Shown here: piece after piece, positions 2,284-64,000 of the stretch | Layout: each line of letters opens with the position of its first letter | Numbering within the stretch: the stretch's first letter is position 1 | Virus record (IMG/VR): IMGVR_UViG_3300020577_006910 | Direction: 5' to 3' (one strand) | Source: an uncultured virus (IMG/VR IMGVR_UViG_3300020577_006910) | Lineage: Duplodnaviria; Heunggongvirae; Uroviricota; Caudoviricetes | Length of the DNA stretch: 64,000 bases | Program-made: the position numbers and the translations under genes | Notes under the pieces: model-generated | Database searches by the model: none | What the model was told of the DNA's origin: nothing | The model's input: only the letters and a program-made list of their open reading frames with translations

Positions 2284-3897
2284 TTAGAAGCCTGAAACAA
2301 ACTCGGAAATAAGCTGTGGAACGGCGGAATCGAACCCTACCACGTCCATTGACCCTGCATCGTTGGGGTCGGCTACGCTGTATTCAGTAGCTGTTGCGGC
2401 AACGCAGATAAGCTTAGCGTCTATACCCATAGACTGCCTATATTGTTTAAGCGCTTCGTGTGGCTTAATAGTACCTAAATTGGCTTCATTATCAGTATAA
2501 ACGACAAAAGCGTCTACGGGCATCTTACGTGCCTGCGCATCCAGGATTATGGAAGCGGGGTTTGTTGCGCCAAAGCTTATAGCCGACATACGAGTTATTA
2601 CACTATTTACCGTATCGTTGGAATTTATAGCAAAAGGCACTAAATCAGAACTAAATGCACTGCTGTAATAATTGGGTTCCGTTTTAGCCATAATAAGGCT
2701 CATAGCAGCGCAGACGTCTCGCGCTGTAAGCGGTAGATTTCTAACTGGATTTGAACGCATAGAACCAGATACATCTAAACCTAGATAAAAACGTTTATTG
2801 GTAGGTTCAACTGTTTTAAAAGATAACCTAAACGCTTCATCTAAAGCGTTATTAATCTGAGGAATAGGTACCCAAGTACTGGACGTACCTTCGCCTTTAG
2901 AATAGGTGTTCATAGCAATTAAAACATGAATAGGGTGTATTCTAGCATCTTTTAACTGTTCAACGTCAGTTATACGAGCTACGACGTTTGATACGTTTTT
3001 AGATAAAGGTTTAAGTACACCATATTTAGTAAGCCTACCTAATGTTCGGATAAGCGCCGTCATAGGAAGGTTAGGCAATAGTGCTTCCCAGATCTCGGGA
3101 TCACCTGCGAATTTTTTAGGTATCATTTCATGCGTAATTGCACTATTTTGAGTGACAAGATCAACTATCTTTTTGACATCATCAGCCTTTTGCATCTCTT
3201 CATATACGTTAATTAATTTAGGTAGCTTTTCAGTTGTTTTACCGTAGATAATATATTTGTAGAGATCAGAATACACCTCATTAGGTGGTGTAGGTCGTAC
3301 TTTGCGTAAAAGATCTTTATGGGACCACGCACTTCGCGCAACCCCTTCCTCTATAACCCGGCTTTTGTATTTAAGAATTTGATACGCGACATTGTCTACT
3401 GGTTGTTTTGTATAAAAATTAGCAATTGCTTTACGTAGACCGCTTCCCCAATCACGCAATGCATCGCTGTAATGGGCAAACTCAAAAAGGTGCGTACCTA
3501 TACGAGCTACTTGAGGTAATACCGAATAAGCAGCAATTCTTGTAGCTAAGTCACCGTGAGCGGCTGCAGCAGCTAACGCAAATAAAGCAGGGGAGTTTTT
3601 GGGAGCCCTACCACTTTTGCTTATATCGCATATGAGTCTGACAGTAGCTAATCCATTGTTCTTAATACAATTAAGTAAATTACTTGCATTATCCGTAGTC
3701 AACTTACGTGAGTCACAATAATACGTAGGTCGTTCACTTCCTAATATAAGAAAACGAACAAGCTGGGCTTGTTCGTTTATTTTAAATACGTAACCACCTG
3801 CGTTATTTTCAACCATACCAGGTACAGGAGTTGTTTGGCTAGTAACTTTTTTTATTTTTCTAGAGATATCACCGGACATAGATCCGTACTGACTCAT
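2284..3897 (-). CDS. rsr: Ro60/Rsr TROVE-domain RNA-binding protein
   Basis: NNAGGYVF, LVRFLILGS, SGRAPKNSPALFALA, RIGTHLFEF, WGSGLRKA, WSHKDLLR, ARIHP, vWA MIDAS DVSGSM, YTDNE, DVVGFD. Confidence 0.95.
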   Translation of the reverse strand: MSQYGSMSGDISRKIKKVTSQTTPVPGMVENNAGGYVFKINEQAQLVRFLILGSERPTYYCDSRKLTTDNASNLLNCIKNNGLATVRLICDISKSGRAPKNSPALFALAAAAAHGDLATRIAAYSVLPQVARIGTHLFEFAHYSDALRDWGSGLRKAIANFYTKQPVDNVAYQILKYKSRVIEEGVARSAWSHKDLLRKVRPTPPNEVYSDLYKYIIYGKTTEKLPKLINVYEEMQKADDVKKIVDLVTQNSAITHEMIPKKFAGDPEIWEALLPNLPMTALIRTLGRLTKYGVLKPLSKNVSNVVARITDVEQLKDARIHPIHVLIAMNTYSKGEGTSSTWVPIPQINNALDEAFRLSFKTVEPTNKRFYLGLDVSGSMRSNPVRNLPLTARDVCAAMSLIMAKTEPNYYSSAFSSDLVPFAINSNDTVNSVITRMSAISFGATNPASIILDAQARKMPVDAFVVYTDNEANLGTIKPHEALKQYRQSMGIDAKLICVAATATEYSVADPNDAGSMDVVGFDSAVPQLISEFVSGF

Positions 3898-5593: not shown

Positions 5594-5612
5594 ACAGGCT
5601 CCTTTAACCTAA

Positions 5613-5683
5613 TAACCCTACCTGAATTTGAATCAGGACTGACGCTTTCAAAGAGCGGCGTGCTACCATTACACCATAGGGTC
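5613..5683 (-). tRNA. tRNA-Gln (UUG)
   Basis: GACCCTA/TAGGGTT acceptor; D-arm GTGT-AATGGTA-GCAC; anticodon loop CT-TTG-AA; T-arm CCTGA-TTCAAAT-TCAGG; no encoded CCA. Confidence 0.9.
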
Positions 5684-6068
5684 ATAGATTTGCCTGACTG
5701 TCATGTAATACAGCATGACAATTATGGCAAATGACGTCGCATTTAGCGATCTCTAGGTATACTTCATCTAGAGTTTTACCGATTCTACCGGCTTCAGAGA
5801 TATTAAATTCTTTGGAATTACGATCTCTATGATGAAAACCCAGACAAGCTGGGCGAGATTCGCCACACTTAACGCACTTACTCACTTTTTTAATCTTTAG
5901 TACCTCATCACGAATTTCATTTCTGCGTTCTTTTGTGTTTAAAGGGGATTTTTTAGGATTTACGTATTGCCCACAAGTAACACATCTACAGTTTTTAGTT
6001 ACTACGGGTTTAGCTTTATGTGGGTTACGTCCCCCGAACTTACTGATGGTACGATGCTTCTTACGCAT
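5682..6068 (-). CDS. HNH endonuclease
   Basis: CVKCGE...LGFHHRD...EIAKCDVICHNCHAVLH. Confidence 0.88.
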   Translation of the reverse strand: MRKKHRTISKFGGRNPHKAKPVVTKNCRCVTCGQYVNPKKSPLNTKERRNEIRDEVLKIKKVSKCVKCGESRPACLGFHHRDRNSKEFNISEAGRIGKTLDEVYLEIAKCDVICHNCHAVLHDSQANL

Positions 6069-42901: not shown

Positions 42902-43459
42902 TCAAACAACACATAATTGTGACACTTCATCTTTAGACAAATTTTCGCCCCAACGCTTTTGAATATCAATATCGCCTAATGTGTAATGTAATTTAATTTC
43001 AGGTACTTCTAAATTGGTGCACATGCAGTAAGGTAAAACTTCTTTTGTGACTACGTTAATTTGATCAAATGGGCAAAGTAAAATAATTGCGTCATGAACA
43101 GATAAAACAATTTTGTATTTTAAATGGTTATTTTGCTTACGATAATTAAATAAATTAATTAATGCACAAGACATTGAATCAGCTACGGTACTTTGAATAC
43201 CAAAATTTACTGCCTCACGCTGCATAGCGGCAACTATTTGCCGGTCATCGCAAGGCGGAAAATAGCGATATCTACCATAGACGTTCTTTACATATCCTAC
43301 CTGAATTACCGCATCTTTGCAAGCTTGAATGTACGCTGCAATTTTATCGTACTCGGATAAAAAAGCATTAATCCAAGATTGTGCCTGCTCTACAGTAGCG
43401 TGTACGCCTTGAGCTTTTAATTGCTGACAAATAGCTCTAGCACCACGGCAATAAGGAAT
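42902..43459 (-). CDS. polA: DNA polymerase family A, exon 2
   Basis: Frame is open upstream of the 43225 ATG: IPYCRGARAI...GYVKNVYGRYRYF...REAVNFGIQSTVAD...LSVHDAI (motif C). Confidence 0.93.
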   Translation of the reverse strand: MPYCRGARAICQQLKAQGVHATVEQAQSWINAFLSEYDKIAAYIQACKDAVIQVGYVKNVYGRYRYFPPCDDRQIVAAMQREAVNFGIQSTVADSMSCALINLFNYRKQNNHLKYKIVLSVHDAIILLCPFDQINVVTKEVLPYCMCTNLEVPEIKLHYTLGDIDIQKRWGENLSKDEVSQLCVV

Positions 43460-43571
43460 CAGTTTGTTATCTTAGAGGCTTTTTATCCTCTAACTCTTGT
43501 TATCACTAACAAGCTCGGCATATATTTTCAGCGTATTACGCTGTCGCGGCCTCGTGCCAGGATTATAGTCT

Positions 43572-44528
43572 CTATTGAGGATCACCTGGTATGCTCTGCC
43601 CCTGTTGAGATCTTTGATTCTCAACTTCGGTTCGAATTGTCTCTATCGAGAGTTTTTCGCTTAATTCCGCGATTTTACTTCGGCGTTCTTTTTTCAACCA
43701 AGGACAAACATCTTCGAACGTGGCAAGACGTTCTTCTACAGTTTCCTGTCGTTTATTGTGTAGTTTACCCATGTGACAGGATTCGCAAACAGGTACTAGG
43801 TTGGTTATATCACTGTTTAGTGGATCGCCATCAATATGATGTATGTCGATCTTTACTTCACTAGCGCATATGACACAGCATTTTGGATACTTACGTAAAC
43901 ATACGCGTCTATAGTCGGGAGCATAGTAGCCAATATTTGCTCTATTAGGGTTGTTAATGTTATACGCAGAGTTTTTGTTGTACCTATGATTAAACGGACC
44001 CCACTGAGTATTACCGGATCCGATACCAGATCTAACGACCCTTCCATGTTTTATGCTATACCGAGTATTTTTTTCTTTATTTTTTACTTTTCTACATGCT
44101 TTGCAATAGAGTGCGGATGTTCGCCCTTTAAACTCAAACTCTGTCTTGCAGTTAGTACATACCAATTTTTTAGTTATTTTTGGCGTTGCATCAGACAAAC
44201 CACACGATAAAGAGCAGTATCTGTGCGTTAAGCTATTTGTCTTAAACTCTTTTTTACAGTGTTCACATACACGTGTGTGTATGGGATTAGCCGTCTGATA
44301 AGCGCGTTTGCACTTATTATCGCAGAAACGTTTACGCTTATTGGGTTTAAAGTGCTTACCACACCCTGGTGCTGCACACATAACAGTTTCAGGTAATAAC
44401 GGTAAATTATCAGCATGTCTGCTTTTACATTTACTGGTACAGAAGCGTCCCCATAAATGACCTAATTGTGGTGCGTATGCCTTGCCACAGTACGCACAAA
44501 GTTTATCCGTTGGTTGATCGTTGTTCAT
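43572..44528 (-). CDS. intron-encoded HNH homing endonuclease with tandem Cys4 zinc-finger repeats
   Basis: Four CxxC...(F/Y)C repeats, then CVIC..IDIHHIDGDPLNSDITNLVPVCESCH. Confidence 0.92.
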   Translation of the reverse strand: MNNDQPTDKLCAYCGKAYAPQLGHLWGRFCTSKCKSRHADNLPLLPETVMCAAPGCGKHFKPNKRKRFCDNKCKRAYQTANPIHTRVCEHCKKEFKTNSLTHRYCSLSCGLSDATPKITKKLVCTNCKTEFEFKGRTSALYCKACRKVKNKEKNTRYSIKHGRVVRSGIGSGNTQWGPFNHRYNKNSAYNINNPNRANIGYYAPDYRRVCLRKYPKCCVICASEVKIDIHHIDGDPLNSDITNLVPVCESCHMGKLHNKRQETVEERLATFEDVCPWLKKERRSKIAELSEKLSIETIRTEVENQRSQQGQSIPGDPQ

Positions 44529-44534
44529 GTATCT

Positions 44535-44563
44535 AGTGTAGCTAGTTTGTATTTTGAAGTCAA
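44535..44563 (-). promoter_or_regulatory. sigma70-type promoter inside the intron driving the homing endonuclease
   Basis: TTGACT-17 nt-TACACT, then 6 nt to ATG. Confidence 0.7.
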
Positions 44564-44605
44564 GAAGCTAAAACTAGCTTTTGCTAAAGATCTCTATGTT
44601 GCGAC

Positions 44606-56332: not shown

Positions 56333-57445
56333 TTACAATCCAATAGCTTTTTTATATTGTTCTAGTTGTAATTTGGGATCGTTGTTCATCATGGCTTTTA
56401 AAAAAGCTGCAGCTGCTGGATCTTTTACATAGGAATTAACCAACGTGTCGAGGCTTAAGTCTAATTTGAGTTCGGGTGTAACGTCAGGTGTTTCTGCGTC
56501 AAAAAATGAACTAAACACATGTGCTTTGTTATCTATATAAGTTTTTAATCTATCTAGAGCTTTATTAATAGAACTGGATATCTTTACACTTACAACAGGT
56601 GTAACAATATCAGGATATTTTTGTTTTTTTATCTCATCATCTATAGTAGGTGTGTTTAATTTTGCGTCTAAGTCGCTAAACATCGCCACTAGGTCTGCTT
56701 CAGTACACAAAGTATAATAATAAAAATCTCGTGTAACTAGTTTATGTTGAGTTAAACTGATCTCACCATTTACTTCATTTACAAGGTATACATATTTTTT
56801 AGATGCCTCTTTTAGAGCTTGTACGCTTGTGCTACCGGGATACGCAAATAGCGTATTACCGTGACGTTCTTGTATATTTACGTGGTAATCACCAAGAAGC
56901 ACTGCGGGTATTTCTTTGGGTACCCAGTTAGCTTTCATATTTACCATTGCGTCAAATTTACAAAAAACATCTAAAAGTTGGTGACCTACCACTATTGTGC
57001 TAGATGGTTTGCTTAAATGAGGCAACAACTCTTTTGCGTAAAACTGCTCTAACTCTGACGGATTACCGCAAAAAGGTACGCCATACAAATAGAAATTATT
57101 TAAACGCGTTTCTTTATTCTGTATATCCAACCCACCTATTACTTTAATCCAATCGTGTTCTTTACTCTTATCATGATTACCAGGTATACCGTAAAAGTTT
57201 AAACCATTTTTATTTAGAGCACTAACGCCTTGTTTAGCTACGTATACGCTCTCCGCATCAGGGCGAGCTGAATCAAATAAATCCCCGCCATCAACATAAT
57301 TACAATTGTGTTCTACGCATAGTTGAATAGTTTGGTCAAACGATGCATACGCATCACCAAATATAGACGCCCGAGCCGTCCATACGTGCTTTCGTAAATG
57401 TTGATCAGCTCCAAAAATAAATAATAGATTTGGTTGTTTTGGCAT
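56333..57445 (-). CDS. sbcD: SbcD/Mre11-like (gp47-like) nuclease
   Basis: ADQHL, GGDLFD, GNHD, GHQ, LGDYH, YPGS. Confidence 0.93.
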   Translation of the reverse strand: MPKQPNLLFIFGADQHLRKHVWTARASIFGDAYASFDQTIQLCVEHNCNYVDGGDLFDSARPDAESVYVAKQGVSALNKNGLNFYGIPGNHDKSKEHDWIKVIGGLDIQNKETRLNNFYLYGVPFCGNPSELEQFYAKELLPHLSKPSSTIVVGHQLLDVFCKFDAMVNMKANWVPKEIPAVLLGDYHVNIQERHGNTLFAYPGSTSVQALKEASKKYVYLVNEVNGEISLTQHKLVTRDFYYYTLCTEADLVAMFSDLDAKLNTPTIDDEIKKQKYPDIVTPVVSVKISSSINKALDRLKTYIDNKAHVFSSFFDAETPDVTPELKLDLSLDTLVNSYVKDPAAAAFLKAMMNNDPKLQLEQYKKAIGL

Positions 57446-57491: not shown

Positions 57492-57791
57492 TCAGGGAGA
57501 TAAGCTTGCAAAAATACGTTTCACATCTTCACGGGATAAAATAATCACGCCGTAAATCGTAAAGCTACTATTAAAAGGGTGCGTAGCTTTATTTATATTA
57601 TGCATTAAAAATTTTATCATGTATGGTTTATAGTTAGTGTCAAATAATACATGAGACATATACACGCACTTAATATGGTAGGCAATAGAGGCACTAAAGC
57701 TAAAACCAAACGTTAACATAAACAAACTAGAGCTATTAATATTCATACTACCTGTTCTTAAGTAGTTAAACTTTTTAAAGCAGTAAATCAT
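57492..57791 (-). CDS. YxF-array ORF (MIYCF)
   Basis: ORF track; GGAG upstream. Confidence 0.6.
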   Translation of the reverse strand: MIYCFKKFNYLRTGSMNINSSSLFMLTFGFSFSASIAYHIKCVYMSHVLFDTNYKPYMIKFLMHNINKATHPFNSSFTIYGVIILSREDVKRIFASLSP

Positions 57792-58113
57792 TTATACGTA
57801 GCTCCGCATCTGCGTGCTCGAACTGCTTCGTAGACATAGAATTAACAAAATAAATTAAAGCGGAAGTTTTTGGTTTACGCCGTAGATTTAAAACTACGTG
57901 ACCATGGTTATTAAATACGTAATATTCGTTATCACTATGGTGCCGCATAGTACGTGGTTTGGTGCTATCTACAAATATAAAACAAAAACAAGTGCTACGC
58001 CAGAAGTAGCCTTTCATGTAGTTAACGCAATAAAACATAAAAAACGTATAATAAAAAGCAGTCTTTCCTGAATAATTGTGGCATTTAAAGACGTAACCAA
58101 AAGGTGCTTTCAT
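57775..58113 (-). CDS. YxF-array ORF (MKAPFGYVF)
   Basis: ORF track; ATGA coupling. Confidence 0.6.
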   Translation of the reverse strand: MKAPFGYVFKCHNYSGKTAFYYTFFMFYCVNYMKGYFWRSTCFCFIFVDSTKPRTMRHHSDNEYYVFNNHGHVVLNLRRKPKTSALIYFVNSMSTKQFEHADAELRINDLLL

Positions 58114-58577
58114 GTTTTTTGTAAAGAATAAATACCGTATAAGTAATATTCATATGAGACCATGTTAAGTTGAAACTCTCTATTTTTTCTAGAGTATCTC
58201 GTTCGTTGTTTATGTGTGCGATCAAGTACGGTAAGCGCCAAGAACACCTCCTCTTCTGGTACATATGCATGTTTATGTAAATTACGCAACGTCAATATAG
58301 ACAGATTGAGACTAGTGTAAATTAAATAAGTAGAACGTCCCCACATAGTGGAATGTATCGCGTGATCACCGTATTTTTTTGCTTTAATTGAAACAGTTAA
58401 AAAATCCGAAGGATCGGTTTTGTCTTTATAAAACATATAAATAAGACCGTGCAATAAATTAAATATTTTTAACTTTTGATTCGTTAACGCGGGTGTAGTA
58501 TTAGGGCGTAGTTTATTCGCTAAATCGTTGTACTCGTCAGATAAAAAGGTGTAGTTTTGACGTGCCTTAGTTTTCAT
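58110..58577 (-). CDS. YxF-array ORF (MKTKARQNYTF)
   Basis: ORF track; overlaps upstream stop. Confidence 0.6.
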   Translation of the reverse strand: MKTKARQNYTFLSDEYNDLANKLRPNTTPALTNQKLKIFNLLHGLIYMFYKDKTDPSDFLTVSIKAKKYGDHAIHSTMWGRSTYLIYTSLNLSILTLRNLHKHAYVPEEEVFLALTVLDRTHKQRTRYSRKNREFQLNMVSYEYYLYGIYSLQKT

Positions 58578-58869
58578 ATATAGGGAAACCTGTCGGACAA
58601 TACACCACGTTTATGCTAATTATTTGATCAAAAAACGTACATTTAACACTGTAGCTAAACACCTCCGTGTGTTTACTAATAAAAAATTGAGGTCTAAAAA
58701 CATAAAAACAATAACAACGATAAAAATGAAAAGGTCTACGTTCAACTCCAAATGCAGTAATAGGATAGTTTCCCAGTATCTGCTTTGTTGCAGAAGTAAA
58801 AAATGTTTGTTCTTTATCAGATAAACAGAATAGATGTTTACTTAGTTTAAAAACATAGTTAATTGTCAT
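58567..58869 (-). CDS. YxF-array ORF (MTINYVF)
   Basis: ORF track; ATGA coupling. Confidence 0.6.
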   Translation of the reverse strand: MTINYVFKLSKHLFCLSDKEQTFFTSATKQILGNYPITAFGVERRPFHFYRCYCFYVFRPQFFISKHTEVFSYSVKCTFFDQIISINVVYCPTGFPIYEN

Positions 58870-59180
58870 TTTTTTAGCGTTACTTTCAATTTACCGTGAT
58901 TGCGTAGCTTTTTTTGTTTTTTTACGTATATATAGTTATTGTTGTTAATGGGCACTGGAGTAACTGCAAAATAGGAAACCATCAAATTTCTGCCAGGACG
59001 TACACTGAACCGTCTTGTTGAGCGTCCGCCTATATGTACAAAGCAGTACATCTTGCGTGAATAAGGTGGTACATATTTAGAATCAGCGCAGCAAACAGTA
59101 AACCAGCTAGAACGACGATGTATTCTAGTAAAATATAAAAAGCGTGAATTATCTGGTTTGAAAGAATAGTTAGTTTTTAC
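58866..59180 (-). CDS. YxF-array ORF, inferred GTA start (xKTNYSF)
   Basis: Frame of 58866..59051 is open 43 codons further up to GAGGT-gcgct-GTA, which overlaps the upstream TAA. Confidence 0.45.
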   Translation of the reverse strand, partial: VKTNYSFKPDNSRFLYFTRIHRRSSWFTVCCADSKYVPPYSRKMYCFVHIGGRSTRRFSVRPGRNLMVSYFAVTPVPINNNNYIYVKKQKKLRNHGKLKVTLKK

Positions 59181-59500
59181 AGCGCACCTCGGAATACACG
59201 ACGCAGGTTAAAAACTTTTTGTTTGGAATCGGAATACACGACGCAGGTTAAAAACTTTTTGTTTGGAATCGTGATGTCCATATACACCGCGCACTCAAAA
59301 ACTTGAACGTAAAAATCTACGAACATATAAACACAAGAATATTCAGTACGAAAACCAATCGGCAAATTAGTGCAATTAATATGAATGTCATCACTTATGC
59401 ACGAAGACATGTACATTAATGACAAATAAATAAACGAATTTGCGCGTAAAATGCTGTCTAGTTTAGGGTTAAGTTTAAATCTGCTAAAGCTGTACAGCAT
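59177..59500 (-). CDS. YxF-array ORF (MLYSF), C-terminus altered by 40-bp duplication
   Basis: Internal ATG at 59500 lies just after the upstream stop. Confidence 0.55.
   Translation of the reverse strand: MLYSFSRFKLNPKLDSILRANSFIYLSLMYMSSCISDDIHINCTNLPIGFRTEYSCVYMFVDFYVQVFECAVYMDITIPNKKFLTCVVYSDSKQKVFNLRRVFRGAL
59191..59270. repeat. exact 40-bp tandem duplication
   Basis: GGAATACACGACGCAGGTTAAAAACTTTTTGTTTGGAATC x2. Confidence 0.97.
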
Positions 59501-59502
59501 AG

Positions 59503-59928
59503 TTAACACACAGGATACTGTAATAGCGGTGGACATTCTACGCTACCAATATTTATGGGCATAGTTGATTTATCAAGAGGTAAACTTACCCAACTGTACG
59601 CCGTAATATCTATAACAAGTTTGTGTGCGTATGGTGTATACGTAAACTTATATTTTGTGTTATTGCGTAACCTAAACACGATAAACTCAACACGATCTCT
59701 ACCGTAAGTTGCCTGTAACATAAAAGCAACGCTTATTACCACAAAGTAATCAGCACGTTTTCCAGTTTTTTTCTGTAAATATTTTAACGTATACCAAGCT
59801 ACACAATAAGGATTATAGACGTTCACTTGACGTAAAGGGAACAGCTTATCAGCAGTTGTTGTTTTTAAAACACTAAACGATCTGTAGTTAAATAAATAGC
59901 GCACTTTTGAATTGTTAGCTATCAGCAT
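59503..59928 (-). CDS. YxF-array ORF (MLIANNSKVRYLF)
   Basis: ORF track; overlaps upstream stop. Confidence 0.6.
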   Translation of the reverse strand: MLIANNSKVRYLFNYRSFSVLKTTTADKLFPLRQVNVYNPYCVAWYTLKYLQKKTGKRADYFVVISVAFMLQATYGRDRVEFIVFRLRNNTKYKFTYTPYAHKLVIDITAYSWVSLPLDKSTMPINIGSVECPPLLQYPVC

Positions 59929-60226
59929 CGGTTTTAATTAAAACGTTTTTCTGAGGTTTTAAATACCAGCTAGATAACAACATAAGACCGTAAAGTTGTG
60001 GTTTTGTATACGTGCAGCTGTAACATTTATTATCGACAGCTTTGATTGTAAATATACAAAAATTAAATAACATATAAATTGCAGGGCAATTAGTATAAAC
60101 GTTTATAGCCAATTTGCTTAAATCACGTTTATTAAAAACTTTTTGTGATAATGCATATAATGAAGATGAAAAATTTACAACATCAACAGGCGAGTAATAA
60201 GTAAATCCAAAAGCGTATCGGACTAT
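59915..60226 (-). CDS. YxF-array ORF, inferred ATA start (xVRYAF)
   Basis: AGGAG-7 nt-ATA in frame with 59915..60112. Confidence 0.5.
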   Translation of the reverse strand: MVRYAFGFTYYSPVDVVNFSSSLYALSQKVFNKRDLSKLAINVYTNCPAIYMLFNFCIFTIKAVDNKCYSCTYTKPQLYGLMLLSSWYLKPQKNVLIKTDADS

Positions 60227-60270
60227 ACTGTGACTCCTGTTCCTTAGTAAACACAGCTACTACAAGCAAA

Positions 60271-60633
60271 CTAACAAAAGTCCGGCAAAAAATAATGACT
60301 AAACCTATAAGAAGCAACACCTACGATAGATATAAACCCGGTTACGTTATCAAGATCAATACAAAAAGACCACGTGTTTTTTCCTATTTTTAAATTATCT
60401 AAAGGCGTGTGTGGAGTTTTTAGCGGCAAGCTTTTATATATGTACATACGCGAATTAAGTAGACTGATGTTAATAGCCGTATAATGCCTATTACAAGTCC
60501 ACCCAATAAAAGGCGGTCTTACTTTAGGGTTTACATTAAACATGCGAAGCCAGCGTATATTACCTATTGAGACCGCACAATTTGGATCTTCAAGCTCTTT
60601 AAACACATAACTAGATCTTTTGATGAGTTGCAT
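60271..60633 (-). CDS. YxF-array ORF (MQLIKRSSYVF)
   Basis: ATG 1 nt after the upstream TAA. Confidence 0.6.
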   Translation of the reverse strand: MQLIKRSSYVFKELEDPNCAVSIGNIRWLRMFNVNPKVRPPFIGWTCNRHYTAINISLLNSRMYIYKSLPLKTPHTPLDNLKIGKNTWSFCIDLDNVTGFISIVGVASYRFSHYFLPDFC

Positions 60634-60634
60634 G

Positions 60635-60919
60635 TTATGTGATCCGTAAACTGGTTGACATTGCATTGAAGGCATGAACTGATGTTACTATATTCAAAGA
60701 GCTGTAGTCTAGATTGTAGTTGTTACCGGGGTAAGTGTATACATACAAATAAAAATACAAACAATGACAATGCCAAGCGGTGTAGTTAGCCCCGCCATGC
60801 CCATTAATAACACAATTGTTTGTCCAGCGTACGTAACATTTTATCAAAGGTAGAGAATTGGTGTTATTAAAATAAATGTAATGAGGGCTAAACCCATAAT
60901 AGCTTTTATTAGCTAGCAT
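60635..60919 (-). CDS. YxF-array ORF (MLANKSYYGF)
   Basis: ORF track; overlaps upstream stop. Confidence 0.55.
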   Translation of the reverse strand: MLANKSYYGFSPHYIYFNNTNSLPLIKCYVRWTNNCVINGHGGANYTAWHCHCLYFYLYVYTYPGNNYNLDYSSLNIVTSVHAFNAMSTSLRIT

Positions 60920-61095
60920 AGGCGATATTGATATCGATGATTATACATACGCATACGATCTAGAATGACATCAAGATAGTAATATATTAACCATAAAGGT
61001 TCCCACCTATACCATATATAGCTATACGCTACAGGATCTTTAATAAATGCATGACTAAGACTAAAACAATATTTAGGAAAACTGGAGGTTGTCAT
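60913..61095 (-). CDS. YxF-array ORF (MTTSSFPKYCF)
   Basis: ORF track. Confidence 0.5.
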   Translation of the reverse strand: MTTSSFPKYCFSLSHAFIKDPVAYSYIWYRWEPLWLIYYYLDVILDRMRMYNHRYQYRLC

Positions 61096-61126
61096 TCAAT
61101 GGGCAGCCAAACGTAGCTACTGAACT

Positions 61127-61456
61127 CTAGTCAAGAAACAATCTATTATTGCGGTTTGTTGAAAACTTAATGAAAGTTACAGACTCTCTGTAAGAAATTT
61201 TAACGTAATAACTTTCAAGCGTACATAAGTTTAAAGTCATACACCAATCTGGAAAAGTTGGAGGACTACTGTGATTTACAATATACGAACTACCTATATG
61301 AATCATTAAAGAACTGGGACTATACCAATGGTAAATTCCGTCATACGTTAACCAATCAAAATAAGCACAAAGTAAAAGAAAACAACTTTTTTTAATAGAA
61401 GAGTCGGTGTTGATATATCGTTCTTTATAGGGGAGTGCAAAACAATAGTTAAACAA
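61127..61456 (-). CDS. YxF-array ORF (TTG start, MFNYCF)
   Basis: AAGGA SD. Confidence 0.55.
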   Translation of the reverse strand: MFNYCFALPYKERYINTDSSIKKSCFLLLCAYFDWLTYDGIYHWYSPSSLMIHIGSSYIVNHSSPPTFPDWCMTLNLCTLESYYVKISYRESVTFIKFSTNRNNRLFLD

Positions 61457-61484
61457 GGCATCCTTTCAAACGACTGAAGTTAAC

Positions 61485-61709
61485 TTACATAAAAAACATT
61501 TCTATATTAAAAACAAAATTTGGCATTAATACATAAAAATGTATAAATTCCGCAAAAACTATTATCCACACACCTGTGTAGGCACGACTACTGTTAACGG
61601 TTACAGCAGGAGCATCCCATAGTTTTTTACACGCAAAATTAGCCACTATAACACGATAGTTATATTTACTGTACTCGTTAATCATTGAATTAAAGGTATA
61701 GTTACGCAT
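61485..61709 (-). CDS. YxF-array ORF (MRNYTF)
   Basis: ORF track; overlaps upstream stop. Confidence 0.55.
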   Translation of the reverse strand: MRNYTFNSMINEYSKYNYRVIVANFACKKLWDAPAVTVNSSRAYTGVWIIVFAEFIHFYVLMPNFVFNIEMFFM

Positions 61710-61923
61710 TAGCTATTATGTACAGATGTATATCTGTGTCATAATTAAACTTAGCTAAAAAGCCTAACACAACAGGACTGTTAGACGCATAAACGGTATC
61801 ACCATAAAATTTAGCGTAATTTAAACGTTGTAACACATATAAAAAATGTAACGTAGCATCTAGTCTATTTATATGCGTAAGTACAGATGTAATGCGGTGG
61901 TTAAACAAATAGTTATTCAACAA
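61702..61923 (-). CDS. YxF-array ORF (TTG start, MLNNYLF)
   Basis: GGGAG SD. Confidence 0.55.
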   Translation of the reverse strand: MLNNYLFNHRITSVLTHINRLDATLHFLYVLQRLNYAKFYGDTVYASNSPVVLGFLAKFNYDTDIHLYIIANA

Positions 61924-61938
61924 CAGCTCCCTTGTGCT

Positions 61939-62157
61939 TTACGTAGAAAACCACCAAACATCTGGTTCGTGCGAGCTTGGTTTAAACACAACTAACTTAT
62001 AAACAGATACATAAGGATTAGCAAAAACACGTACATAATTATAGGTAGAAAATCGCGTCAAGTATAGCAACACATTAAACGGATTGTAGTAAGTATAAGC
62101 AAGATTTGCACCTGAAAGAATACGTGTGTACTTTTTGCTAAATTTGTAGGTCGGCAT
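61939..62157 (-). CDS. YxF-array ORF (MPTYKF)
   Basis: ORF track. Confidence 0.55.
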   Translation of the reverse strand: MPTYKFSKKYTRILSGANLAYTYYNPFNVLLYLTRFSTYNYVRVFANPYVSVYKLVVFKPSSHEPDVWWFST

Positions 62158-62165
62158 ACAAAGAG

Positions 62166-62471
62166 TTAGGTAAACAGATCAACGTAATTATTATGATTAA
62201 AACTAGTCATATAAGCTTCCACAGTCCAAAAACTAAAAAAAGGTGACTTAGAGATGTAAGTCCGATCACAGAAAAACCTACCTGTAAATAAGATGCCTGC
62301 GTTACGTACAGTTAAAAATACACAACACCGAAAGTCACAATAAGTCATAATTAAATAAAATGTAGGTGTGTACCACTCAATAGGATAGGTACGCCAAAAA
62401 TCAAAATAATGAAAAGCTCCGAGCTTAGACTTAAATCTGTAATGATTACCGGGAACAGTTTTGACAGACAT
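62166..62471 (-). CDS. YxF-array ORF (MSVKTVPGNHYRF)
   Basis: GAGGA SD. Confidence 0.6.
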   Translation of the reverse strand: MSVKTVPGNHYRFKSKLGAFHYFDFWRTYPIEWYTPTFYLIMTYCDFRCCVFLTVRNAGILFTGRFFCDRTYISKSPFFSFWTVEAYMTSFNHNNYVDLFT

Positions 62472-62503
62472 GTGTCCTCAGGATGGCCACGTTTAACCAA
62501 GCA

Positions 62504-62800
62504 CTAAAAGTATGGATAATGCAAAGATCCACAGTCTAACACATAATCCACGCGACCTGTCACACAATTTAGTACAGCTAAACGCCAGTTATACAATGCG
62601 CTATAGACATTACGGTTAATTTCTATGTAGATCTTCGAATACTCTGAATGAGTAGTTATATTACTGTTATAAAAATCTACCTGTCTGCTGTGCCGTCCTG
62701 TATAACTTAAACAAAAAGCACATTGATTAAAAACAGCTGTATCTTCATATATCGGGGTATATTTTTTATATAAAGGTATAAATGTGTAGATCCGTTTAAT
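62504..62800 (-). CDS. YxF-array ORF missed by the ORF track, inferred ATT start (xKRIYTF, 98 aa)
   Basis: AAGGA-8 nt-ATT, 98 open codons to TAG; no ATG in frame. Confidence 0.55.
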   Translation of the reverse strand: MKRIYTFIPLYKKYTPIYEDTAVFNQCAFCLSYTGRHSRQVDFYNSNITTHSEYSKIYIEINRNVYSALYNWRLAVLNCVTGRVDYVLDCGSLHYPYF

Positions 62801-62857
62801 GGATAACGTCCTTTTTTACATAAAAGTTAAGCATAAGAATCAAAATAGACGCCATGC

Positions 62858-62938
62858 TTAGACCTCGCTAAAGGCAACACGTAAAAACGCCCAAACATTA
62901 ACTTGATAAGAGTACTTAAACTCATAGCTATACCTGAT
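62858..62938 (-). pseudogene. short/truncated YxF-array ORF, inferred ATC start (xRYSYEF, 26 aa)
   Basis: AAGGAG-7 nt-ATC; early TAA. Confidence 0.35.
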
Positions 62939-62998
62939 AGCTAAACTCCTTTGCTGTTAGCTGTTTGCACTAAACGTGAACAATTAACACAAAGTTAT

Positions 62999-63331
62999 TT
63001 AATTAAAATCAATGCAAACACTATGACTAAAAATAATTGTAATAAAGTTTGAATGTTTACTAGCGCGGCTAGAATTAGCACTGGTGCGGCTAATGTCAGT
63101 AATTGATATAGTTACGTAACTTAAAAAATACGGATCTGTGGCGTAAACGTAGTAACAGTGACTTGTGTACGAATAACAAGTTGAATGACTTCTTTTAACA
63201 TAAGTACAAACAGTGTACAAACCAATTAAACGATAGACATAAACTGAATTAAAAATTTTTGGTAAATGCAGTATTGAGTTAACGGGAGTAAAATTAATTA
63301 AATTATTAGAATCAAAATTATACAAAATCAT
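62999..63331 (-). CDS. YxF-array ORF (MILYNF)
   Basis: Internal ATG at 63331 overlaps the end of the upstream ORF. Confidence 0.55.
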   Translation of the reverse strand: MILYNFDSNNLINFTPVNSILHLPKIFNSVYVYRLIGLYTVCTYVKRSHSTCYSYTSHCYYVYATDPYFLSYVTISITDISRTSANSSRASKHSNFITIIFSHSVCIDFN

Positions 63332-63614
63332 GAATCTCGTAATACGAATCTGCGTAATGTGGTTTAAAAATACCATCAGCCGTTTGATTAAAATATTGTC
63401 GGCATGTTAACGTAGCTAACCTATAAGGCTCGTGGTCTAAAAAAAATAATGGAAAACATACAAAGCTCACAAATGACATAGCCTCACTATTCCGCTGATA
63501 GCACAAACAGTACTGATCAGTGTGCGACATAAAACGCCCTCCGGGAAGTGAACAATAGTTAGCTATAAAACAACTAGAATTACCTCTAAAAACATAAGCT
63601 TTGTTAACGCGAAT
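63318..63614 (-). CDS. YxF-array ORF, inferred ATT start (xRVNKAYVF)
   Basis: TAAGGAG-7 nt-ATT in frame with 63318..63530. Confidence 0.55.
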   Translation of the reverse strand: MRVNKAYVFRGNSSCFIANYCSLPGGRFMSHTDQYCLCYQRNSEAMSFVSFVCFPLFFLDHEPYRLATLTCRQYFNQTADGIFKPHYADSYYEIHDFV

Positions 63615-63643
63615 GACGCTTCTCCTTAGCGGGCGTTGTTTAA

Positions 63644-64000
63644 TTAGTTAAAATAGTTACAAAAGTGTTTGCTGCAACGAAGCTTAAATACGTACTCACT
63701 ATAAGGGACGTTAACCGAGCAATATCTACGTTCATTCATGTCTGAAGGCGTACGCGTAACCCAAGTCAAATTAGGTAAAGAACAAAACCTAAAAAAGTTT
63801 ACATTTACATAAAAAAAATATTCAGCCTTACACGAACGATCATCGTGTGTAAACATAGAATAATTTACACGTACGTACAACCGTGAGAAAGCAGATATTT
63901 CAAATCCATAAGATAGACAATAAAGACTAGCTAAAGAATAAGCGCAAAATTGTTTATCTAACGCAGTAACTGATTTAACTGCAGAATACTCATGCACACG
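63644..64000 (-). CDS. array-type ORF, start probably outside the window
   Basis: Same Y/F/C-rich composition; frame open to the window edge. Confidence 0.5.
   Translation of the reverse strand, partial: RVHEYSAVKSVTALDKQFCAYSLASLYCLSYGFEISAFSRLYVRVNYSMFTHDDRSCKAEYFFYVNVNFFRFCSLPNLTWVTRTPSDMNERRYCSVNVPYSEYVFKLRCSKHFCNYFN

Follow-up and report, generated by a model that had tools for sequence, protein, structure and literature searches.

Shine-Dalgarno-led ATT, ATA and ATC codons as probable weak starts in a small-gene array of an uncultured Caudoviricetes virus

An array of 22 short open reading frames (ORFs; 26–155 amino acids; positions 57492..64000, minus strand) that share an N-terminal YxF motif lies between the SbcD gene and the terminase side of an uncultured Caudoviricetes virus, IMG/VR record IMGVR_UViG_3300020577_006910. 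The window analyzed here is the stretch of 64,000 nucleotides (nt) formed by bases 1–64000 of this linear 73.6-kb record (G000), which is 38% complete. An earlier sequence-only reading had proposed that five array genes initiate at ATT, ATC, ATA or GTA behind Shine–Dalgarno (SD) sites, and had offered three options: that expression is tuned down, that it is made conditional on reduced fidelity of initiation factor 3 (IF3), or that genes are being switched off by start-codon mutation. The first of these is the best supported, through the link between SDs and non-ATG starts, their identical spacing, the coding-like frames and the retention of the SD in relatives. On balance, we favor the interpretation that the SD-led ATT, ATA and ATC codons are real but weak starts, which selection has probably retained and which would keep the array proteins at low levels. 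It is likely that three or four of the five sites are starts of this kind.

Inspection of the sequence finds all five pairs of SD and codon as described, on the minus strand, and in each frame the YxF motif follows soon after, with its tyrosine at codon 7, 5, 5, 4 and 5 for the codons at 63614, 62938, 62800, 60226 and 59180, respectively. The best case is the ATT at 62800 (ORF 62504..62800, 98 residues; AAGGA at 62813-62809, 8 nt spacing), for which the next canonical codon in frame lies 68 codons downstream and use as a start appears very probable. The ATA at 60226 (ORF 59915..60226, 103 residues; AGGAG at 60238-60234, 7 nt spacing) is also a probable start, only slightly less secure; the next canonical codon in its frame is a TTG 38 codons on that lacks an SD, and the ORF leads a run of seven abutting or overlapping genes that reaches 57492. 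The ATT at 63614 (ORF 63318..63614, 98 residues; TAAGGAG at 63628-63622, 7 nt spacing) may well be used, possibly beside an ATG at 63530. The first 27 codons of this ORF are coding-like (0 of 1000 shuffles reached their score), and it ends in a stop that overlaps with the start ATG of the following gene (63331). For the ATC at 62938 (ORF 62858..62938; AAGGAG at 62951-62946, 7 nt spacing) the case for use is evenly balanced; its frame of 26 codons contains no canonical codon and is probably a remnant. The weakest case is the GTA at 59180 (ORF 58866..59180, 104 residues; GAGGT at 59190-59186, 5 nt spacing), whose use as a start is doubtful. Three sites are thus good candidates and two are questionable, so that the proposal of five genes holds for the codons and their SD sites and is too generous as a count of genes, since two of them have rival ATGs and one is the 26-codon remnant. 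The two further array genes that had been assigned to TTG were also confirmed, one at 61702..61920 (minus strand, 72 residues, SD-led by GGAG at 6 nt, with a second TTG at 61923) and the other at 61127..61456 (minus strand, 109 residues). The AAGGA of the latter stands 4 nt upstream of its TTG, closer than any AGGA spacing used in the core (6–10 nt).

A first question is whether the unusual third bases might be assembly errors. Independently assembled contigs from other runs carry the same codons: X2 matches at five of five sites, X5, from another study, at 60226 and 62938, and X9, from a third study, at 60226. Because these independent contigs agree, assembly error can be set aside. X2 could be related to the source sample, and its contigs derive from an RNA library, in which the presence of the array is no proof of transcription.

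A second question is whether such sites would arise by chance. The array contains five instances of an SD 5-mer followed within 5–9 nt by ATH (ATT, ATC or ATA) or GTA and then by 25 open codons; 1000 dinucleotide shuffles averaged 0.54, and a single one of them gave five. When YxF is added to the pattern the shuffle mean is 0.02 and the maximum 1. These values are optimistic, since the criteria were derived from the very cases at issue. When the entire 73.6-kb contig was scanned blind to YxF, with a size limit that the 62938 ORF falls below, 4 of 93 tiled ORFs were flagged, and all four lie in the array. Moreover, in four array frames the first canonical start is 39–73 codons in, and the stretches between the odd codon and that first canonical codon behave as in-frame coding sequence (p ≤ 0.002 in four of four). 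Under a codon model fitted to the canonical array genes, all five frames give p ≤ 0.004 from the odd codon onward, and four of them are 98–104 codons long. The same survey bears on the hypothesis that start choice is relaxed throughout the host, or that a recoded stop extends these frames to an upstream ATG. Core genes begin on ATG or GTG within ~13 codons of the frame start, the exception being the C-terminal exon of the DNA polymerase; all three stops are in use; and the in-frame upstream stop is TAA in four of the five cases. We give this hypothesis almost no credence, and core start usage, stop usage and the whole-contig scan led us to reject both of its forms, which they largely refute.

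The association between SD strength and start codon is nearly complete in the array. An SD of −4 kcal/mol or better, a threshold reached at 5.8% of random positions, precedes all seven non-ATG starts and only 2 of the 15 ATG starts (Fisher p = 2e-4). Of the 57 core genes, 26 are SD-led, each of them assigned ATG; a possible exception is 38949, which may be one SD-led GTG. Scored against a generic anti-SD, the five odd-codon SDs range from −5.7 to −9.1 kcal/mol, and all five codons share one aligned spacing of 5 nt (AGGA+8, which equals GAGGT+5), while the core spreads from AGGA+6 to AGGA+10. The gene layout follows the same division: 12 of the 14 ATG array genes that have an upstream neighbor either overlap its stop or begin at most 8 nt away, and six of the seven non-ATG genes stand 18–60 nt clear. 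The first two array ORFs start past the window, at contig positions 64256 and 64051 (minus strand). The first has an alternative start, a TTG at contig 64337 (L001:10337, minus strand) behind a strong SD, from which the protein P0020 is called and which is followed by a YTY motif. If used, this TTG would be an eighth SD-led non-ATG start of the array.

How would such codons act? We propose that the SD would hold a near-cognate codon in the ribosomal P site, where fMet-tRNA would initiate a few per cent as often as at an AUG. A weak start at an SD-led head gene would lower the output of that gene, and because several such genes lead runs of SD-less, stop/start-coupled ATG genes, it would throttle the followers as well, as in the run of seven headed by 60226. 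Measured rates are in keeping with a weak start. AUA, AUC and AUU initiate at 1–2% of AUG in E. coli, with the remaining codons, including GUA, lower (bioRxiv 10.1101/063800), and near-cognate starts reach about 10%, and up to 30%, of AUG in S. aureus reporters (PMC13009471). IF3 treats AUU, AUA and AUC as non-canonical (PMC5499595). As to why array proteins should be scarce, toxicity and a role in host takeover are guesses.

The arrangement resembles that of known near-cognate genes, namely infC and pcnB (AUU) of E. coli and infC, ccpN and citZ (AUA) and cvfC1 (AUU) of S. aureus, in which an SD places the codon at normal spacing before an open frame. Four of the five sites carry one of the codons found in the infC, pcnB and ccpN type (AUU, AUA or AUC), and the GTA at 59180 does not. 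As in that type, no canonical start is near the 62800, 62938 and 60226 codons, whereas 63614 and 59180 have rival ATGs. Each of those precedents is one conserved host gene whose start has been mapped; here four or five putative sites fall within 4.7 kb of a fast-evolving phage array in which SD-led genes avoid ATG. The pairing of a sub-optimal start with a stronger SD also recalls the tendency of weak start codons toward stronger SDs (Belinky, Rogozin and Koonin 2017, PMC5622118). The trend as described in that source is genome-wide and concerns changes from AUG to GUG or UUG, whereas here it involves ATH, is nearly complete in one array and is absent from the core. Finally, the SD-less ATGs that overlap or abut an upstream stop are arranged like those of the M13 gene V–gene VII pair as presented in PMC2268962, with the differences that coupling here is read from layout and that the head gene would itself be a weak initiator.

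Several observations weigh against the interpretation of the odd codons as retained weak starts. Both 63614 and 59180 have competing ATGs. The 63614 frame contains GGAGG-7nt-ATG (63528..63542, minus strand; ATG at 63530), which has an SD of −10.0 kcal/mol and would yield a 70-residue product, and P0015, a homologue of the 63614 gene with 77% identity, is called from the equivalent ATG. The P0015 call is not independent evidence, because ATT is not available to gene callers as a start. Within the 59180 frame, an ATG at 59051 is directly followed by YCF and has no SD. These features favor the hypothesis that the real starts are downstream canonical codons and that the pairs of SD and odd codon are relics or chance. 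Such an explanation is likely for one or two sites and highly improbable for all: at 62800 and 62938 it is impossible, given the 68 codons to the next canonical codon of the former and the lack of any in the latter, and at 60226 the next TTG has no SD; moreover, the segments upstream of the canonical codons are coding-like. The link between SD and codon is also inflated, in that odd starts are easiest to spot behind an SD, for which YxF serves as a partly independent anchor. In addition, the DNA is T-rich and ATH codons abound in it; they account for 46% of the start-loss changes to be expected.

Other points on that side come from the near relatives, which show the array to be labile, with frameshifts and replaced segments; the amino-acid composition of the array is also near-neutral. 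X6, which is ~96% identical over 58800–60507 and ~84% identical over 62297–62818 and 63193–63700, has single-base gaps, at least one of them inside the 62800 ORF (at 62557), and X2 and X5 share a 4-nt deletion in the 62157 gene. Among the changes listed for the 62800 ORF, X6 has four synonymous and three non-synonymous codons and X9 has four and four, over ~25 codons, a small sample. These counts hint at weak purifying selection on the ORF, much like that on the ATG array genes. In X9 (11 of 14 differences listed) the 62800 codon itself lies too near the alignment end, and an in-frame TTG occurs two codons above it, 3 nt behind the AAGGA. X2 contains a diverged 63614 homologue in which a G immediately precedes the codon two positions above YxF, and we read this as compatible with an NTG start.

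The hypothesis that draws on this lability is that the SD-led genes, formerly strong and costly, recently lost their ATG and are now effectively silent, with frames as yet unbroken. The array is indeed fast-changing, with frameshift polymorphisms, replaced segments, the 26-codon remnant and a fresh duplication, an exact 40-nt tandem repeat (59189..59268, no strand assigned) just upstream of the GTA site. This repeat is single copy in X6; through the duplication the upstream ORF grows from 96 to 107 codons and comes to have its stop over the GTA. ATG-started array proteins differ from those of near relatives at 1–15 residues, with many replacements, amino-acid composition is near random, and four of the five odd codons are one change away from ATG. 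However, targets for nonsense mutations exceed those for start loss by 4.0–5.9 fold per gene, so that nonsense lesions should outnumber lost starts 4–6 fold, yet four of the five frames are whole. All five SDs are intact, no YxF frame in the array lacks both ATG and SD, and the SD and non-canonical codon at 62800 persist in X6, which is ~84% identical there. Because the expected nonsense lesions and SD damage are not seen, retained weak starts are favored over decay, and we consider recent shut-off unlikely. As neutral decay, the proposed switching-off of genes fits poorly; 62938 and 59180 remain candidates for it.

What the relatives retain at 62800 is informative for the weak-start interpretation. 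The AAGGA is kept in X6 and X9 although the DNA upstream of it is unrelated. In X6 (10 of 24 differences listed) codon positions 2 and 3 are unchanged, position 1 being too near the alignment end, and because of this X6 has no ATG, GTG or TTG there. As to whether orthologues carry ATG at the same position, a check suggested by the sequence-only reading, the answer is therefore negative for one site in one relative, where it was read directly; for 60226 the evidence is indirect. Contigs of runs X12 and X14 gave no match over 62670-62900, which favors neither side. For neither the 60226 nor the 62800 ORF did the searches return a called homologue, even in relatives. The Atlas returned no usable match for the 62800 protein, and a single-sequence AlphaFold model of it, with a pLDDT of 39, carries no weight here. 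Neighboring proteins do appear in the collection, from Logan contigs that equal those of X6 in length (2432 and 3493 bases); uncalled homologues are what one would see if a canonical start is missing in the relative too. Elsewhere in X6, 62819-62943, which covers the 62938 ORF, is replaced by 995 other letters, and the breakpoints coincide with two SD sites, a hint that genes are exchanged at their starts. Two further explanations of the differences among relatives were rejected: an adenine bias of the kind left by diversity-generating retroelements (the X6 changes are symmetric transitions), and an ancestral ATG followed by a stop at 62821 (in X6 and X9 the in-frame TAA is present and that ATG is absent).

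Might the weak starts instead form a switch? If all entry points to the array are IF3-sensitive, expression could rise when IF3 activity falls or when the nutrient state of the host changes. The literature lends this some plausibility. IF3 curbs SD-less re-initiation; when it is overexpressed, re-initiation drops, more strongly where no SD is present, and M13 growth is prevented (PMC2268962). When nutrients are limiting and under ppGpp, non-AUG mRNAs compete poorly (PMC5499595), and the AUA start of ccpN is medium-dependent (PMC13009471). However, nothing in the sequence favors regulation over a fixed low level, and core genes use no such codons. IF3_C has no match in the 38%-complete G000 or in five related records (two of them complete), and no array protein belongs to a Pfam family, so that, unlike in infC autoregulation, no IF3 product is found among the array proteins. 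The proposed dependence on reduced IF3 fidelity therefore finds no evidence, and a conditional switch is improbable. We rate just as low the idea that the 22-gene array is a translationally gated module whose YxF proteins stay near silent until initiation fidelity or nutrient state shifts during infection.

Distant relatives were sampled by aligning the terminase with six homologues and fetching 160 loci, in many of which the SbcD–terminase synteny holds. None of the 160 contains the YxF array, and tblastn of the array proteins against them gave no match. Across 105 distinct loci (1.45 Mb) only 17 SD-led non-canonical starts were found, at most two per locus. This rarity of clusters counts against retained weak starts, and because such starts are rare in related loci the cluster is special to this lineage. 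One echo of it is L002 (53% terminase identity), where the SbcD–terminase interval is occupied by another array of 18 genes (L002:3493-8009, minus strand), unrelated to the present one, with a shared basic N-terminus and with two SD-led ATC, five GTG and one TTG starts. The two ATC starts speak for the weak-start interpretation. The link between SD and non-ATG start is not significant there (p = 0.33, with one row misplaced by three bases), which counts against it. A stricter scan of the whole L002 record flagged one site, inside the array; L083 and L162 duplicate L002 and were excluded.

A second echo comes from the MSMEG_6728-family (PF03013) gene, which is pyrimidine-dimer glycosylase-like and is present in 26 rows, with ATG in 16 and TTG in two. 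The remaining eight rows, seven of them different, form a 100/100 clade (L023:18462-18911, L025:7707-8219, L041:8476-8928 and L048:15280-15732, together with L054, L055, L062 and L127; minus strand) that begins at ATT four times, ATA once and GTG three times and never at ATG, while its sister clades use ATG. The SD GAGGA(G) stands ahead of every start in the clade, and the NCBIfam profile of the gene begins at the clade's ATT. Phages of this group can therefore keep ATH starts on intact genes, and the clade, in which ATT, ATA and GTG interchange without return to ATG, offers a clean natural test of selection against a strong start in phages.

The mode of initiation is itself known; what would be new is its clustering, SD-led, in a phage accessory array, and its tie to the coupling layout of that array. 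The literature searched, which left most subscription journals outside, yielded no description of such a cluster of near-cognate starts among the small genes of a phage array. Gene callers miss or shorten genes of this kind, and for this reason phage accessory arrays may hold more genes than are annotated. If the mutual exclusion of SD and ATG is selected, a whole block of coupled genes would be dampened through a few codons.

The array proteins are recognized chiefly by their N-terminus. YxF falls within the first 11 codons in 22 of 22 array proteins and in 1 of 57 core genes, and the array proteins are aromatic-rich and acidic-poor (D+E 5.6%, against 10.9% in the core). PHROGs and Pfam returned no family for any of them, and all-against-all comparison gave no significant similarity beyond YxF (best phmmer E 0.005), so that paralogy of the genes is unproven. 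The tyrosine codon is either TAT or TAC, and because it varies the motif looks like a protein-level feature. It might serve as a targeting tag, or form the first strand of a fold that has diverged strongly. The internal proteins of T4 carry an N-terminal capsid targeting sequence with a YxxF motif, and they too are otherwise unrelated small phage proteins with a short N-terminal aromatic motif. The spacing differs (YxF here), the motif is the only common feature seen, and this resemblance could serve as a lead for the function of the array, not for its start codons. At the DNA level, the array gene junctions share no repeat and the array has no excess of promoters or terminators.

With regard to the wider contig, single-query scans of IMG/VR and JGI with SbcD, SbcC, terminase and helicase found no close relative, and cultured phages gave ~20–30% identity or no match. 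The window encodes DNA polymerase, primase, helicases, ribonucleotide reductase and SbcCD, with SbcD (56333-57445) adjoining the array and a GpA-type terminase past the window end. Rfam had no match on it apart from one tRNA. Upstream of the array, L001:10421-10721 (contig 64421-64721) contains an 18-nt hairpin, a 23-nt direct repeat at 30-nt spacing and a perfect 15-nt inverted repeat, and may be a regulatory region or an origin. An insertion (43226-44593) interrupts the DNA polymerase gene; it carries an HNH endonuclease ORF (43572-44528) and is probably a group I intron, with no Rfam match at the gathering score. Lastly, a Ro60/TROVE gene (2284-3897) lies near a tRNA-Gln(TTG) gene (5612-5684), and a Y-RNA-like partner nearby is possible.

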